From sequence record PQ306574.1: a DNA stretch of 64,000 nt, one strand, 5' to 3'. Positions 13,081 to 20,160 of this stretch are shown one piece after another. The first letter of the stretch is position 1. Every line of letters starts with the position of its first letter. The notes under the pieces are model-generated. The model worked only from the letters and a program-made list of their open reading frames with translations, made no database searches and was not told where the DNA came from. The translations under genes and the position numbers were made by a program. This DNA is from Escherichia phage vB_EcoM_PTE-Eco09.

Positions 13081-13680
13081 ATGAAAGAACTTGAATTAAA
13101 ATACTATGCACACTCACAAATTGGCGTCGAAACCATCTGTGATTTGTGGGTGGCAATGTATGACGGGTACAATCTCTTAGACCGAGATAACATATTAAAA
13201 CACGAATTTTATTATGATACCGAAGATCATGCGCTACGTCAAAAAGGAATTTATGCACGACTTGACTGTAGAAAATCAGAGATCATGGTCAAAATGGGTG
13301 ATAATGAATCTGGACTATTCAACCGCGAGGAAATGACATTTTCAAATTGGGATGAGTTCGTCCATTTTATTGATAGTCTAGGGGTAAACTCCGACTATAT
13401 CACTGCAATAATGCAAGTAATGACATATCGCAAGTCATTGACTCTAGATATGGGTTGTGGTATAGTGGAAATGTGCAAAGACACTTTCTATTATGGCAAA
13501 GTAGGCGAAGGATTGGGAAACACTGCTCATTATGAACTTGAGTTCGAGTTAAAATCAGGTGATGAAAAAGCACTTGACATTATCCGAGAAATGATGCTAG
13601 AATATGTTGGTGACGATTTAAGTCCTAGCGAAATTTCAAAAGCTGAACGTGGTTTTCAATTAATGACGAAAGAGGGTTAA
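13081..13680 (+). CDS. CYTH-like (triphosphate tunnel metalloenzyme) domain protein
   Basis: 199 aa; N-terminal ExExK (MKELELKY) and C-terminal acidic ELEFELK motifs typical of CYTH; inserted between rnh and dsbA. Confidence 0.5.
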   Translation: MKELELKYYAHSQIGVETICDLWVAMYDGYNLLDRDNILKHEFYYDTEDHALRQKGIYARLDCRKSEIMVKMGDNESGLFNREEMTFSNWDEFVHFIDSLGVNSDYITAIMQVMTYRKSLTLDMGCGIVEMCKDTFYYGKVGEGLGNTAHYELEFELKSGDEKALDIIREMMLEYVGDDLSPSEISKAERGFQLMTKEG

Positions 13681-14217: not shown

Positions 14218-14898
14218 ATGATCAGAAACCGTCTTCCTCCAGATCCAGATATGCGAATTAATGCTAAATCTGTGTATATGTTATATTGCATGATGAAAGC
14301 TCATATGAACGGGCGTTATGATTGCGTAAAATACAATTGGAGGATGCGGTTGTCTGATGCCGCATTCAATAAACGCAGAGATAAGTATTATTTCGCAAAA
14401 TTAGCGGAAAAGTACAATCTAAGAGAATTATACTTCCTATTCCTAAGCAATCTGGTAGCTAATACCGATGCATGGGTAGGTGAAATCACCGATGTTGACG
14501 CATACGGGTTTTACATGGAGTACATCGGTAAAATCACTGATGCGGCAACACGATTTGACGATGACATTAAAAGTCTTGTATACTTCTCAGAGAAACGCGG
14601 GGTTACTCTTAAAGAGCTAATTACATATAATCCCGCAACCGAAACTAGCGGTATCTTTAAACTACTGCAAAATCGGATTATATCGTTTGAGTCGTTTATG
14701 TTGTTAGATAGCTTTCTAAATATAATCGACGAACACGACAAGGTAGCCAAAGACTTGATTTGGCAAACTTATAGTGTTAAAATGAAGGCGTACAAGAAAC
14801 TACTTGTTATTGACGCCGCAAAAGCAAGAGCATTATTTGTTAAAGTAGTTAAAGAGTGTAAAGAAATATCTCAATTAAAAGCCGAAACAAATAGTTGA
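14218..14898 (+). CDS. 59: helicase loader gp59
   Basis: 226 aa; matches T4 gp59 (KSVYMLY-M-KAHMNGRYD-VKYNW-MR-SDAA, FLSNLVAN-DAW-G-I-D-DA, YNP, IFKLLQ-IISFE-F-LLDSFLNIID-HD). Confidence 0.85.
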   Translation: MIRNRLPPDPDMRINAKSVYMLYCMMKAHMNGRYDCVKYNWRMRLSDAAFNKRRDKYYFAKLAEKYNLRELYFLFLSNLVANTDAWVGEITDVDAYGFYMEYIGKITDAATRFDDDIKSLVYFSEKRGVTLKELITYNPATETSGIFKLLQNRIISFESFMLLDSFLNIIDEHDKVAKDLIWQTYSVKMKAYKKLLVIDAAKARALFVKVVKECKEISQLKAETNS

Positions 14899-14922
14899 CA
14901 AGTAAATTTAAATCTGTATAAT
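14895..14922 (+). promoter_or_regulatory. sigma70-like early promoter upstream of gene 32
   Basis: TTGACA-N16-TATAAT about 35 nt upstream of gene 32 ATG. Confidence 0.5.
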
Positions 14923-14958
14923 AGTCTAGTAAATTAATCAAAAGAAGGAATAGTGAAT

Positions 14959-15927
14959 ATGTTTAAACGCCAAGATTCTTCCAAACTGCAAGCTCAACTG
15001 GCCGCACTGAAAGGTGGCAACGGTTTCTCCAAAGAAGATCCGAAAGAGTGGAAGATTAAGACTGATGCAGCAGGTAACGGTGAAGCCCTGATTCGCTTCC
15101 TGCCGTCTAAGACAGAAGACGGTCTGCCGATTGTGAAACTGGTAAACCATTCCTTCAAAGTTAATGGCAAATGGTATTGGGAAAACTGCTCCAGCACCCA
15201 CGGTGATTTTGATTCTTGCCCTGTGTGCAAATATATTAACGAAAAAGACTTGTACAATACCGATAAAACCGAATGGCAACTGATTAAGCGTAAAGCGTCT
15301 TACTACGCAAACATTCTGGTACTGAAAGATCCTCAAGCACCAGAAAATGAAGGTAAGGTATTCAAATTCCGCTTCGGTCAGAAAATTTATGATAAGATCG
15401 TTGCAATGGTGAACGTGAATACCGATATGGGCGAAGTTCCGGTCGATGTAACTTGTGTGTTCTCTGGTGCTAACTTCCTCCTGAAAGCTAAGAAGGTTGA
15501 TAAACACCAGAACTATGATGATTCTCGTTTCATGCAGCAATCACAGCTTCCGAAAATTGAAGACGAAGCATATCAGAAATATCTGATGGAAAACATGGTT
15601 GATCTGAGTGAGATTGTAGCGCCTAGCCAGTTTAAACCGTTCGATGAACTGGAAACCAAATTTAAGAAAACTATGGGCGTTTCTATGGTAGCTGGTGCTG
15701 CGGCTTCCAGTGCTGCGGCAGCGATTAACAGCCAGCTTGACGATTTTGACGCACAGATGAATGCATTCGATTCTGGTATGACCGCAGCTAACACTGTAGT
15801 TGGTATTAACGCAGCTAGCACGGCGTTAGATTCTTCCGCTGATGACCTGATGGCATCTCTGGACCTGGGTGGCGGTACTTCCTCCGCTTCTGATCTGGAT
15901 GATCTTGACGCTCTGTTAGGGATGTAA
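14959..15927 (+). CDS. 32: single-stranded DNA binding protein gp32
   Basis: Strong match to T4 gp32 throughout (MFKR…LPSK…VNH-FK-NGKWY-E-CSSTHGD-DSCPVC-YI…[30 protein letters not shown]…acidic C-terminus); start taken at ATG 14959 with SD. Confidence 0.95.
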
Positions 15928-15938
15928 TGAATTTTACA

Positions 15939-15962
15939 GCCTCCCTCCGGGAGGCTTTTTTA
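15939..15962 (+). terminator. rho-independent terminator after gene 32
   Basis: GCCTCCC-TCC-GGGAGGC stem followed by TTTTTT. Confidence 0.6.
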
Positions 15963-15987
15963 TTGCCTAAAATTTTATGAAAAGGTG

Positions 15988-16015
15988 TTGACATGCTTAT
16001 GTGGTAATGTATAAT
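15988..16015 (+). promoter_or_regulatory. sigma70-like early promoter with conserved leader
   Basis: TTGACA-N16-TATAAT then GCACACATCGAAACA…GGAGG leader. Confidence 0.5.
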
Positions 16016-16045
16016 GCACACATCGAAACAATGGAGGATAAAAAT

Positions 16046-17260
16046 ATGTTAGTACGTCAAGCGCATGAAATTGAATGGACTAAGGAGAAACATAATTGTA
16101 GAGCGAAAAGCCCAACAGATTTTTATGGTAAAATTTTAGAAATATGTAAAACAGAAAATTTAGTTTTTGTCGGCTTTGTTGGGGAATGGGAAGGAAACAA
16201 AACAAAAATAAAACTTATCTGCGAACATGGTCATGAATGGATATGTTCGATAGATAAATTTGTAAGTAAAGGAACAAGATGTTCTCATAAACAATGTAAA
16301 GGTAAACGAATATCTAAAAAATTGTCTATATCCGAAACGGAATACAAAACGAGAATTTTAGAAATATGTGAAACTGAAAATCTAATTTTCTTAGGTTTTG
16401 TTGGTGAATGGAAAGGGTGTGATACTAAAATTCGCATAAAATGCAAATACGGTCATGAATGGGATGTATCTATATATAGCTTCACAAAAATGAATACCAG
16501 ATGCCCTACATGCGCAGGACAGAACAGGACAAAAGACGAATACAAAACGAGAATTTTAGAAATATGTGAAACTGAAAATATAATTTTCTTAGGTTTTGTT
16601 GGTGAATGGAAAGGATGCCGCACAAAAATAAAACTTAGCTGCAAACACGGTCATGAATGGATATCTTCCATATTATGTTTTGTGTATCAAAATACTCGCT
16701 GTCCTGTATGTGTTGGTAGATTGTCTATCGACGATAGAATGATACAGATTAATCAAGTTTGCAATTCTTTAGGTTATGTAATAATTAAGATCCACGAAGA
16801 ATGGAAAAACACAGAAACTAAAATTGATGTTAAATGTTTATGTGATTATATATGGACAACAACAATACATAGAGTCATACATGGGACTACAGGTTGCAGA
16901 AAGTGTGCTACACATGGATACAATACAAAAAAATCGGGGACTCTTTATATACAGAAATTAACCAACGATGATTCCTTTGTTGGTGTGAAATTTGGAATAA
17001 CAAACAGAGACACGAATGAACGAATGAAAAACCAATCATCAAAGTCTAAATTCGACCATGAGATCTTTTATGAATTGACTTTACAAGACGGTCAAAAGAT
17101 CTTAGAATTAGAGAACAAGATCAAGAAAGCGATGAAAGGTAAAACTTCCTATATCTCAAAAGAAGATATGCCGGATGGCTGGACCGAAACAGTAGCGCCG
17201 TCTGAATTGAGCACTATCATGTATATCGTAAAAACTTTTGAAAAAGAGTTGACAGCGTAA
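16046..17260 (+). CDS. hypothetical protein with four tandem Cys/His-rich repeats and a C-terminal T5orf172/GIY-YIG-like domain
   Basis: Four ~70-aa repeats (TRILEICETEN-IFLGFVGEWKG…K-GHEW…TRCP-C) then GTLYIQKL…VGVKFGITNRD…ERMK; start set at ATG after GGAGG. Confidence 0.45.
   Translation: MLVRQAHEIEWTKEKHNCRAKSPTDFYGKILEICKTENLVFVGFVGEWEGNKTKIKLICEHGHEWICSIDKFVSKGTRCSHKQCKGKRISKKLSISETEYKTRILEICETENLIFLGFVGEWKGCDTKIRIKCKYGHEWDVSIYSFTKMNTRCPTCAGQNRTKDEYKTRILEICETENIIFLGFVGEWKGCRTKIKLSCKHGHEWISSILCFVYQNTRCPVCVGRLSIDDRMIQINQVCNSLGYVIIKIHEEWKNTETKIDVKCLCDYIWTTTIHRVIHGTTGCRKCATHGYNTKKSGTLYIQKLTNDDSFVGVKFGITNRDTNERMKNQSSKSKFDHEIFYELTLQDGQKILELENKIKKAMKGKTSYISKEDMPDGWTETVAPSELSTIMYIVKTFEKELTA
16111..16740. 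repeat. in-frame tandem DNA repeats (~210 bp units, 3-4 copies)
   Basis: Units beginning near 16120, 16333 and 16540 are highly similar; copies 2 and 3 are near-identical over about 80 nt. Confidence 0.7.
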
Positions 17261-17276
17261 CGCAATAGTGTATAAT
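17249..17276 (+). promoter_or_regulatory. sigma70-like early promoter with conserved leader
   Basis: TTGACA-N16-TATAAT-GCACAT-ATCGAAACA…GGAGG, overlapping 3' end of upstream ORF. Confidence 0.5.
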
Positions 17277-17305
17277 GCACATATCGAAACAACGGAGGAT
17301 TAACA

Positions 17306-17635
17306 ATGTTTTTGAATGCCACCCTTTCCCAGAAAAGTGATAAAATCGAACTTCTGTATGTCATTGCTGATGTGGACGTACAACGAAGAAATATAGATTT
17401 AAAAATTCACAAATATTATACTATGAGCGAATATCATGAAATAGAGATCCCACATAGTGTGTATCCTGCATTATTGTTAGGAAAAGGAAATCTAAGTGAA
17501 TATTCTTTGAAAGTCATCAAAGATTCTAAATCAATGCTTGCTCATATGGAAAAAGATTTTCTTGATGAAGTTTCCGCGCTAGTTATTAAACTGAAAGAAG
17601 AAACAGCACCGCTTTTCATGGAACAAAAAGGTTGA
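17306..17635 (+). CDS. hypothetical protein (109 aa)
   Basis: ATG ORF behind promoter/leader/SD cassette. Confidence 0.5.
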   Translation: MFLNATLSQKSDKIELLYVIADVDVQRRNIDLKIHKYYTMSEYHEIEIPHSVYPALLLGKGNLSEYSLKVIKDSKSMLAHMEKDFLDEVSALVIKLKEETAPLFMEQKG

Positions 17636-17659
17636 CGCCGAACACAGATGATGTATAAT
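17632..17659 (+). promoter_or_regulatory. sigma70-like early promoter with conserved leader
   Basis: TTGACG-N16-TATAAT-ACAAAC-ATCGAAACA. Confidence 0.5.
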
Positions 17660-17690
17660 ACAAACATCGAAACAAAGAGAGGACTATATT

Positions 17691-18020
17691 ATGTGGACAG
17701 TAGAAAAAATCGTTGACGAATCAACCGAAATTGTCTCGTGTGGCACTATTGAAGAATGTCTTAAAGCCGCTAACCGTGAATGTATTACGGTTTATGAATC
17801 CCGTCGCGGTGATGGTAGCTTGATTCAAAGTGATTATCGTTACACCGCACATAAAATTGTATTCCGTTTCTGGGAAAACGGTGTCAATGTCGGTGTCAGC
17901 TTACTGAAAATGTGGCGTGATTATTCCGAACGCTACTATGTTTCTCCTGATGATGGTAATGAATTTAAGACAGCAATCACAGAAGAAAATGTAAACGAAA
18001 ACTATTTCAAACTGATTTGA
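17691..18020 (+). CDS. hypothetical protein (109 aa)
   Basis: ATG ORF with SD behind promoter. Confidence 0.5.
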   Translation: MWTVEKIVDESTEIVSCGTIEECLKAANRECITVYESRRGDGSLIQSDYRYTAHKIVFRFWENGVNVGVSLLKMWRDYSERYYVSPDDGNEFKTAITEENVNENYFKLI

Positions 18021-18035
18021 TGGGAGATTTATATT

Positions 18036-18605
18036 ATGATTCAATGTGTATTTGCTATTGGTGACACTAAAATGTCAGATGAAAATTGGGCTTTTGGTTT
18101 TAAAGGCGGTTTACCGTGGGGGCGTCCAATTAAAAAGGACATGGAAAACTTTAAAATGCGCACTATGGGAGATGTTGATCTTGCGGCGGTTGTAATGGGA
18201 CGTAATACCTTTGAAAGTCTGCCTAAAGCACTGGAAGGTCGTCTTAATGTGGTTATTAGTACCGATGCCAGCAAGCCGACACCGAAAGCCAAAAACGGCG
18301 ACCAGCCTAATGTGTATACTGGAATTGAATTAAAGGATCTGTTAAAAGTCCTGGAGAAAACGCAAGGTTTGGTAAGTGTTATCGGTGGACCTTCCCTGAT
18401 TGAAAAAGCGGTTGACTTTGCGGATCGTATTGTGTTAACATATGTTCAACGAGCAGGAATTAATGATCCGTTCGAATATGATGTTGGTATCTCTAAGGAA
18501 ATGATTCAGGAATTATATTTTGACTTTGCAACAAAAGAAGAACATAATTACTTCCTTGATGATTACCTGATCAGCGAACAAATTTTAGAACGTAAGAAGG
18601 CGTAA
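18036..18605 (+). CDS. frd: dihydrofolate reductase
   Basis: 189 aa; DHFR-like motifs (IGD-TKM-W, GGLPW, VVMGRNTFESLP, VIGG); adjacent to td as in T4. Confidence 0.85.
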   Translation: MIQCVFAIGDTKMSDENWAFGFKGGLPWGRPIKKDMENFKMRTMGDVDLAAVVMGRNTFESLPKALEGRLNVVISTDASKPTPKAKNGDQPNVYTGIELKDLLKVLEKTQGLVSVIGGPSLIEKAVDFADRIVLTYVQRAGINDPFEYDVGISKEMIQELYFDFATKEEHNYFLDDYLISEQILERKKA

Positions 18606-18699: not shown

Positions 18700-18968
18700 T
18701 GAAAGTCGGTATTATTCAATTATGGACGGCTACCAGTGAAAACTACGCAGTAGCCGTAGATTATTACGGTTTACAATATCTCTATGATGAAGCGAGCGCA
18801 TCATGGCTTCCTGTGCAAGAAAATAGCGATATCTCAAGACCTGCTACTATATTCGACCGTGGCGTTGTCTTTATCGATATTGACGAGACAGTAGCAAAAC
18901 TGCGTAAGAAAGCAATCAACAAGAAAAAGGTGATGTGGGATGAAAGAATATTTGAAACTATTGCGTGA
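18699..18968 (+). CDS. hypothetical protein (about 89 aa)
   Basis: Track ORF 18672-18968 starts at GTG; internal ATG (MKVGII) overlaps the stop of the preceding peptide. Confidence 0.4.
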   Translation: MKVGIIQLWTATSENYAVAVDYYGLQYLYDEASASWLPVQENSDISRPATIFDRGVVFIDIDETVAKLRKKAINKKKVMWDERIFETIA

Positions 18969-20160
18969 TGTTCTCGATAATGGCTGGCCTCGTGAAGATC
19001 GAACGGGGGTAGGTACGCTCTCTAAATTCGGCGCAGAGATGCGAATTGACTTAAGCAAGGGTTTCCCATTACTGACCACTAAAAAGATGGCTACAGCCTC
19101 TGTAATTGGCGAATTGCTATGGTTTATGGAGGGATCACTTGACCGCCGTCGCTTACAGGAAATTACACGCGGTAAGTTTGACGAAGAAGCCTTCGACATT
19201 TGGCGCGGCAACTGTCTTGATATGAAAGAAAAGAATCCTTTGCGATTCAATGGTTATAATGTCGGCAATATGTATGGTATGGCGTGGCGACGCAAACCGA
19301 TTCATCCACACGGTGAAATCAAAATTAAGCGCGTTAAGAGCAAATATACACATACATTTAAGCACCCGTGGGTAGAAGACTTTACGCCAACCAATGAAAC
19401 AGAAGACCGTTTATGTGCTATCTGGCGTGGTATGCGTTATGAAGAGTTTGATTATATTCTGGTAGCAGACCACTGGAAGACTCAATCTAATTTTGTTAAT
19501 GATGCATATTGCTTGTGGGGATTCCAGGAATGGGTAGATGATGGTTATTTCGGTTATCTGCTTGATAGTGATTATCTGGGTGGGGATATTATAGCACCGG
19601 ATACCACGATGTTTGTTAGTATGGACGTAGACACATCAAGCACTAAAGACGATGAAGAATATGTCTATCGCCCGAAGATTTGGGAAGACCAGTTACAAAA
19701 CGTGATCGAACAAATTAAAAACAATCCAACGGATCGCCGGATCATTATTGACTCATGGAACGTACAAGGAACACATAATGCTGTATTAGGTGTATGTCAT
19801 CCTTTCGTGCAATTCTACGTCAATGAAGGTAAACTGTCTTGTATGTGGTTTCAGCGAAGCGTAGACAGCTTTTTAGGCTTGCCCTTTAACGTCGCCAGCT
19901 ATGCGCTGTTAACTCACATCATAGCGAAAATGTGTGATCTTGAGGTAGGAGAACTGATTTTCTCTGGTGGAGATACTCACATTTACAAAAACCATTTTGA
20001 TCAAGTCATGGAACAGTTAAGCCGTGTTCCGTTTGATAAACCAACAATTGAGTTGCCGGAATTTAAATCTTTAGATGAGGTATTGACAAAGACTCCGAAA
20101 GACTTTAAAATTCACAACTATCAAAGCCATCCAGCGATCACCGCTCAAATGGCAGTATAA
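18940..20160 (+). CDS. td: thymidylate synthase (ThyA family) with a ~120-aa in-frame insertion
   Basis: N- and C-terminal regions colinear with T4 Td (DRTG-GT, GFP-TTKK, ELLWF, catalytic CH, QRSVDSFLGLPFN-ASYA-L-HI-AKMC, FSGGDTHIY-NH, PKDF…MAV); extra segment between YGMAWRR and DQLQNVIEQI; no intron. Confidence 0.85.
   Translation: MKEYLKLLRDVLDNGWPREDRTGVGTLSKFGAEMRIDLSKGFPLLTTKKMATASVIGELLWFMEGSLDRRRLQEITRGKFDEEAFDIWRGNCLDMKEKNPLRFNGYNVGNMYGMAWRRKPIHPHGEIKIKRVKSKYTHTFKHPWVEDFTPTNETEDRLCAIWRGMRYEEFDYILVADHWKTQSNFVNDAYCLWGFQEWVDDGYFGYLLDSDYLGGDIIAPDTTMFVSMDVDTSSTKDDEEYVYRPKIWEDQLQNVIEQIKNNPTDRRIIIDSWNVQGTHNAVLGVCHPFVQFYVNEGKLSCMWFQRSVDSFLGLPFNVASYALLTHIIAKMCDLEVGELIFSGGDTHIYKNHFDQVMEQLSRVPFDKPTIELPEFKSLDEVLTKTPKDFKIHNYQSHPAITAQMAV

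Follow-up and report, generated by a model that had tools for sequence, protein, structure and literature searches.

The locus and its genes

The window analyzed here, a stretch of 64,000 nucleotides, comes from an RB49-like T4-type coliphage of the genus Krischvirus. Around the gene of interest, the order is rnh, an ORF for a CYTH-domain protein, genes 33, 59 and 32, an ORF of 404 amino acids, two ORFs of 109 amino acids each, frd and td. The 404-aa ORF lies on the plus strand, 3' of gene 32 (14953–15927) and 5' of frd (18036–18605), and extends from an ATG at 16046 to a stop codon that ends at 17260. A preliminary description of this DNA had put it between gene 32 and frd, which is correct, with the two 109-aa ORFs also preceding frd. 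A GGAGG sits 10 nt 5' of the start. The start is supported by the homologues, which open with the identical sequence MLVRQAHEIEW, and by the annotation of Escherichia phage FL04, which uses the same start and lists the product as a 'hypothetical protein'. Over positions 15900–17400, the window is 99.3–99.5% identical to Escherichia phages FL04 and FL37, two independent complete genome records that contain the same 1215-nt gene.

Matches to Pfam and to PHROG 681 ('endonuclease', E 6.8e-92), together with homology to gp174 of phage ICP1, identify the product of 16046–17260 as a predicted nuclease of the T5orf172 family (GIY-YIG superfamily) with four CapR-type zinc fingers arrayed at its N-terminus. 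The GC content of the gene is 33.2% (31.5% in the array), compared to 44.7% for gene 32 and a window average of 40.4%. Searches of NCBIfam, PADLOC and, over 14800–18200, Rfam returned no relevant match. We found no paralogue of the ORF in the 64-kb window, and no support for the minus-strand ORFs of 41–63 aa that lie within the gene.

The preliminary description had equated the position of the gene with that of segG in T4. The T4 segG gene precedes gene 32, in the interval between genes 59 and 32, and the T4 slot 3' of gene 32 holds frd.3. The analogy is only positional and off by one slot. The true segG slot is empty in the window (14898–14953) and filled in phage E26, where an extra 594-nt gene (913–1506 of the locus, annotated as 'Fis family transcriptional regulator') separates genes 59 and 32.

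Two other genes in the neighborhood deserve mention. The ORF between rnh and gene 33 (13081–13680, plus strand, 199 aa) encodes a protein with a CYTH (triphosphate tunnel) domain (Pfam E 8e-7), which is likewise listed as 'hypothetical' in FL04. The thymidylate synthase ORF (18940–20160, plus strand, 406 aa) matches its Pfam domain in two stretches (aa 250–406 correspond to profile positions 110–266), which implies an in-frame insertion of about 140 aa midway through the enzyme. Searched by itself, this insertion has no Pfam match, and the td genes of RB49 and JEP8 are of similar length (1233 nt).

Four CapR-type zinc-finger units

The N-terminal array consists of four tandem units of 65–73 aa, all encoded on the plus strand: repeat 1 (R1; 16118–16336, aa 25–97), repeat 2 (R2; 16337–16534, aa 98–163), repeat 3 (R3; 16535–16729, aa 164–228) and repeat 4 (R4; 16730–16933, aa 229–296). 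The Pfam CapR homology domain (PF21817) matches the protein in four stretches with 108.3 bits against a cut-off of 24.2 (E 2.1e-31), which is well past what chance would yield and bears out the four zinc-ribbon-like repeats of about 70 aa that had been noticed earlier. As modeled, R1 has a treble-clef-like order of a helix, three strands and a short helix, followed by a cysteine knuckle. R2 additionally matches DUF4379 ('probable treble clef zinc finger') at aa 124–159 (30.8 bits, cut-off 24.5, E 3.4e-7), and R3 is delimited by its CapR match and the alignment of the repeats.

A Cys ... CxxC pattern is invariant in each unit. It takes the form C-x3-H ... C-x2-C in R2 and R3, with a C-x4-C variant in R1 and a C-x-C ... 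C-x2-C variant in the divergent R4. Three cysteines per unit are invariant or nearly so among 21 alleles (C59/C79/C84, C133/C153/C156, C199/C219/C222 and C264/C284/C287). The fourth zinc ligand is presumably the histidine of the GH motif or, in R4, C266.

In the AlphaFold model of the full protein (mean pLDDT 85, pTM 0.36), each repeat forms a separate module of a helix, three strands and a short helix, and the linkers between the modules are of low confidence. As modeled, the array looks like beads on a string. We found no solved structure that is convincingly similar to the repeat unit.

A probable conversion tract links repeats 2 and 3

Over whole units, the repeats share 43–69% of their nucleotides. 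R1, R2 and R3 are each other's closest relatives in the whole family (53–70% aa identity; the best foreign unit reaches at most 56%), and R4 is an outlier, whose aa identity does not exceed 29% to R1–R3 or 44% to any other unit of the family. R2 and R3 are 69% identical over the whole unit, in amino acids and nucleotides alike. This similarity is unevenly distributed: an 80-nt tract at 16340–16419 in R2 (plus strand) is identical in 78 of its 80 positions to 16538–16617 in R3, and just 3' of the tract the identity drops to 55% with saturated synonymous sites (dS). Because of this mosaic, we ascribe the tract to conversion or recombination between old repeats rather than to a recent duplication of the whole unit, which we rejected. 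The pattern in the sequence thus indicates an intragenic gene conversion or recombination tract.

These comparisons qualify two claims of the preliminary description. Two of the repeats had been called near-identical at the DNA level, which applies to the 80-nt tract, with the remainder of the unit at 55% and the whole unit at 69%. All four had been called recently duplicated, a description that goes too far, given the 53–70% aa identity among R1–R3 and the divergence of R4.

The C-terminal domain has a GIY-YIG fold

The remainder of the protein (aa 297–404; 16934–17257, plus strand) is a predicted nuclease domain of the T5orf172/MUG113-like, GIY-YIG-fold type, as judged from its model, family profiles and invariant residues. 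The model of residues 291–404 reaches a pLDDT of 96.2 and displays the GIY-YIG alpha/beta fold. The segment LYIQKL ... VGVKFGITNRD, which had been flagged as a T5orf172-like signature, lies within this fold. Taken alone, the domain stays below the Pfam gathering cut-offs: for T5orf172 (PF10544) it falls just short, with 18.8 bits (E 0.0023) where 20 are required, and for MUG113 it reaches 17.5 bits (E 0.0061) where 22.3 are required. Of 72 family members, 14 match T5orf172 (best E 6e-9) and 26 match MUG113 (best E 4e-9).

Y301 (in LYI), K315 and G317 (in the KFG motif), R326, H338, E356 and E381 (in GWTET) are invariant in the 21 alleles, and Y301, R326 and E381 are invariant or at least 90% conserved across the 72 homologues. 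Going by the order of the motifs rather than by structural superposition, Y301, R326 and E381 would be the equivalents of Y6, R27 and E75 in I-TevI. In BLASTP, ICP1 gp174 aligns with E 9e-14 over the repeats and with E 7e-13 over the repeats plus the nuclease domain. Taken together, these data make it very probable that the 404-aa protein belongs to the T5orf172/CapR nuclease family.

One slot holds many alleles

The slot after gene 32 is polymorphic for presence or absence of the gene among close relatives. It is empty in E26 and G5211 and occupied by proteins with three repeats in W115 (338 aa), four repeats in GEC-3S (BN201_0241, 392 aa), in the window, FL04 and FL37 (404 aa) and in Cognac (405 aa), five repeats in RB49 (RB49p240, 485 aa), and six repeats in JEP8 (541 aa). 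When metagenomic relatives are included, the homologues have two to six repeats. Three elements recur in every allele: the promoter, the first ~11 codons and the nuclease domain. The nuclease domains are 86–88% identical in nucleotides (96% for Cognac) and 73–87% in amino acids, compared to 45–58% overall protein identity, and the upstream flanks are 92–97% identical. By contrast, the DNA of the array (about 16050–16900) shows no detectable similarity between alleles. In a distant blastn search of 50,697 phage records, we recovered the array allele of the window from FL04 and FL37 only.

Three pairs of alleles (P0011/P0028, P0003/P0025 and P0014/P0023) are ~99% identical apart from whole repeat periods (2, 2 and 1, respectively) that were lost or gained exactly in frame, and the junctions of these differences fall inside duplicated sequence. 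The differences are either true changes in repeat number or, for the shorter forms (the two-repeat alleles P0028, P0025 and P0023), a collapse of repeats in short-read assemblies. Together with the range of two to six repeats in relatives, these pairs agree with the earlier proposal of repeat-driven evolution.

To look for a target site, we aligned the 450 nt 5' of the gene from two empty and six occupied genomes and found no polymorphism that separates the two groups, so that the flank offers no candidate for a cleavage target.

Members of the family are also found in elements integrated in Salmonella and E. coli. In contigs of Salmonella enterica, the gene for a three-repeat homologue (P0034; 6001–7047) adjoins csgDEFG in the chromosome, and genes for a large serine recombinase, a second MUG113-like protein, a UvsW-like helicase and UvsY lie nearby. 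This locus looks like an integrated element with T4-like genes.

Promoter-bearing direct repeats bracket the gene

An intrinsic-terminator-like stem-loop (15938–15956, plus strand; 8-bp stem with 6 GC pairs, then a T run) follows gene 32 and is kept in all krischvirus loci that we aligned. Next comes a sigma-70-type early promoter (15988–16015, plus strand), a 12/12 match to TTGACA-16-TATAAT, which is predicted to drive the ORF; GEC-3S has an annotated early promoter at the homologous site, and we infer the same function here. The promoter is part of an 82-nt direct repeat comprising an AT-rich region, the promoter and a 5' UTR with the Shine-Dalgarno sequence. Its upstream copy (15961–16042, plus strand) is 76% identical to a downstream copy (17222–17303, plus strand), in which a second perfect TTGACA-16-TATAAT promoter (17249–17276) covers the final codons of the ORF and would serve the one that follows. 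The stem-loop is present on the upstream flank only; the downstream copy is without one. In E26, the empty site consists of the upstream copy up to GGAGGAT joined to the downstream copy (TAACAATGTTT...).

This layout resembles that of a PeSL-type cassette, of which the stem-loop at 15938–15956 would be the upstream stem-loop part. PeSL-mediated deletion, insertion and mini-circles have been demonstrated in RB49 and phi1, which belong to the same genus (Arbiol et al. 2010, PMC2839356). The flanks would therefore provide either a second possible route of mobility or homology that could be used in break repair.

The first of the two 109-aa ORFs (17306–17635, plus strand), which has no family match, is itself a promoter-bounded presence/absence cassette (promoters 17249–17276 and 17632–17659). 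The window, E26, G5211 and Cognac carry it, whereas RB49, GEC-3S, W115 and JEP8 do not.

A proposed homing-type endonuclease with an exchangeable array

The preliminary description had seen in the protein a GIY-YIG-type nuclease that carries a modular array for DNA binding, and had suggested that it may be a homing-endonuclease-like element that changes its specificity through duplication of repeats. This reading is supported in that it fits every computational test that we ran: the four CapR fingers, the GIY-YIG fold and its invariant Tyr, Arg and Glu residues, the homology to ICP1 gp174, and the presence/absence polymorphism in krischviruses all point the same way. From these features we infer zinc binding, DNA binding, cleavage, a target and homing for the 404-aa protein. 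That the product is a free-standing endonuclease of the homing type, from the T5orf172 branch of the GIY-YIG superfamily, is in our view reasonably likely, and we lean slightly toward the view that the gene actively homes.

The following mechanism would account for these features. Early transcription would start at the gene's own sigma-70 promoter. The four CapR-type fingers, each folded independently and strung together like beads, would jointly read a long DNA site, and the C-terminal GIY-YIG-fold domain (Tyr301, Arg326, Glu381) would cut nearby. In a mixed infection, the break in the genome of a krischvirus that lacks the allele would be repaired from the carrier genome, a repair that would spread the gene together with adjoining gene 32–frd markers. 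The array would evolve fast, through recombination among its own repeats and through replacement, with the promoter, leader and nuclease domain remaining constant.

Four considerations count against this explanation. The 450 nt 5' of the gene yielded no candidate target, and the T5orf172 score of the protein itself stays under the Pfam gathering cut-off. Presence or absence of the gene can also be obtained by recombination between flanking promoter repeats without a nuclease (PMC2839356), and, as with Odn and CapR, T5orf172 proteins can be domesticated for other roles. Sequence analysis alone cannot separate an active homing gene from a domesticated one (PMC10448857). Recombination between the promoter repeats leads to an alternative in which the gene would be the passenger of a PeSL-type cassette that moves by recombination between the flanking promoter-bearing direct repeats, maybe via mini-circles, with its own nuclease uninvolved in the spread. 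The 82-nt repeat that brackets the ORF, the two perfect promoters, the terminator stem-loop, the E26 empty site as an exact join of the two repeat copies, the precedent of deletion, insertion and mini-circles in RB49 and phi1 (PMC2839356), and the same promoter-bounded presence/absence pattern in the neighboring ORF 17306–17635 are all in line with it. Yet it does not account for why intact catalytic-type residues and a hypervariable DNA-binding array are retained, and the downstream copy lacks the stem-loop. Moreover, it is compatible with homing, as the PeSL homology could be the substrate for break repair. As a full account of the gene we regard the passenger model as unlikely, if still worth serious consideration. 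Somewhat less likely still is domestication as a weapon, in which the nuclease would destroy foreign DNA that the array targets, be it from rival phages, from satellites or from the host chromosome, to the benefit of the phage and without copying of the gene itself. The ICP1 T5orf172 protein Odn acts in this manner (PMC8263062), an extreme diversity of arrays next to a constant nuclease is what an arms race with shifting targets would yield, and the family also resides in the integrated elements of Salmonella and E. coli. Against this, the gene is dispensable, with the slot empty in several krischviruses, no PADLOC defence model matches, and the DNA-binding part is a generic CapR array of the kind found in homing endonuclease genes (HEGs) rather than a captured replication-initiator domain as in Odn.

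A role as a non-cutting, CapR-like DNA-binding regulator that represses or tunes transcription has a precedent in PLE CapR, a transcriptional repressor of the same domain type that is derived from such genes (PMC8096241). CapR, however, has no nuclease domain, and it is this domain that is best conserved here (73–87% vs 45–58% overall), down to the invariant Tyr, Arg and Glu, making such a role very improbable. Finally, the preliminary description had named an assembly artefact as a possible source of the repeats. We ruled it out because the identical 1215-nt ORF is present in the independent complete genomes of FL04 and FL37; the divergence of the repeats from one another (43–69% nt identity over whole units) and the comparable arrays in relatives speak against it as well, so that an assembly or sequencing artefact is next to inconceivable.

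Returning to the homing-type endonuclease, the allelic pattern invites a bolder and rather doubtful extension, namely that the slot after gene 32 is a natural 'specificity-swapping' locus. The promoter, leader and nuclease would stay constant, the finger array would be replaced or resized (0 or 3–6 units), the alleles would target one another or rival phages, and every unit of 65 aa might recognize a fixed DNA segment following a rule that can be decoded. If true, this would provide a modular, re-programmable GIY-YIG nuclease scaffold.

Comparison with known systems

Judged by its sequence, the gene is of an ordinary type, a 'selfish' phage nuclease gene of an already described family. In the survey by Barth, Dunham and Seed (2023, PMC10448857), zinc fingers of the CapR, DUF723 or related types were found in 87% of T5orf172 HEGs, often in several repeats described as 'beads on a string', a modularity that should permit rapid diversification of target recognition. 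The interpretation in the preliminary description is therefore not new, and nothing fundamental changes, because both the architecture and the proposed mode of evolution, specificity through recombination of repeats, have been published (PMC10448857). The same survey notes that T4 itself has no T5orf172 genes and does not name krischviruses. What the locus contributes is that this class of homing endonucleases, most of whose descriptions come from ICP1, T5-like and Aeromonas phages, also has a representative beside gene 32 in a T4-like genus, in a slot where classical Seg/Mob endonucleases would have been expected. The most useful addition is the allelic series itself: one slot and the same nuclease domain, with arrays of 3–6 units, form a natural set for mapping how CapR-type fingers read DNA.

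Like T4 SegG, the other Seg proteins and I-TevI, the 404-aa protein combines a GIY-YIG fold with DNA-binding modules, and like segG its gene is free-standing beside gene 32. In Seg and I-TevI the nuclease is N-terminal, whereas here it is C-terminal. We rejected orthology to SegG, as there is no sequence similarity (BLASTP E 2.2) and the slots differ. The flanks share with the PeSL cassettes of RB49 and phi1 the strong early promoters around a variable gene, the stem-loop on the upstream side and the chimeric single copy at the empty site. These cassettes were described mainly around ORFans in hyperplastic regions (PMC2839356), whereas here a nuclease gene lies between core replication and nucleotide-metabolism genes.

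For PLE CapR, the namesake of PF21817, Netter et al. (2021, PMC8096241) showed experimentally that DNA binding depends on four conserved cysteines, and they reported its relationship to the N-terminal domains of T5orf172 proteins in ICP1. CapR has the same zinc-finger DNA-binding domain but is a repressor without a nuclease domain, whereas four copies of the domain are joined to a nuclease domain here. The zinc ligands differ as well, being mostly C-x3-H ... C-x2-C in place of the CxxC ... CxC reported for CapR (PMC8096241). ICP1 Odn (Gp88) shares the C-terminal T5orf172 domain with its conserved Arg and Glu, and its nuclease activity depends on the Glu (Barth et al. 2021, PMC8263062); we found no other T5orf172 protein in the literature whose nuclease activity had been demonstrated. 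Unlike our protein, Odn carries a RepA_N domain captured from its satellite target instead of a CapR array, and it serves as a nuclease in defence rather than in homing.

The closest parallels are the ICP1 gp174-type HEGs, despite an identity of about 24–29% between gp174 and the 404-aa protein. Both have an N-terminal zinc-finger array followed by a C-terminal T5orf172 domain, a beads-on-a-string layout, repeats that are degenerate at the DNA level, in-frame gain or loss of repeats, and a gene whose presence varies among close phage relatives. In gp174, an in-frame deletion arose by recombination between degenerate repeats (PMC10448857). By contrast, the carrier here is a T4-like member of the Straboviridae (Krischvirus), and many alleles (0 or 3–6 repeats) occur at one fixed slot. 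Within the genus, RB49p240, GEC-3S BN201_0241 and other krischvirus PHROG 681 genes share the slot, the promoter and the MLVRQAHEIEW leader with the gene in the window, but the number of units varies among these alleles, and the arrays of RB49 (5 units) and GEC-3S (4 units) are wholly different from it at the DNA level.
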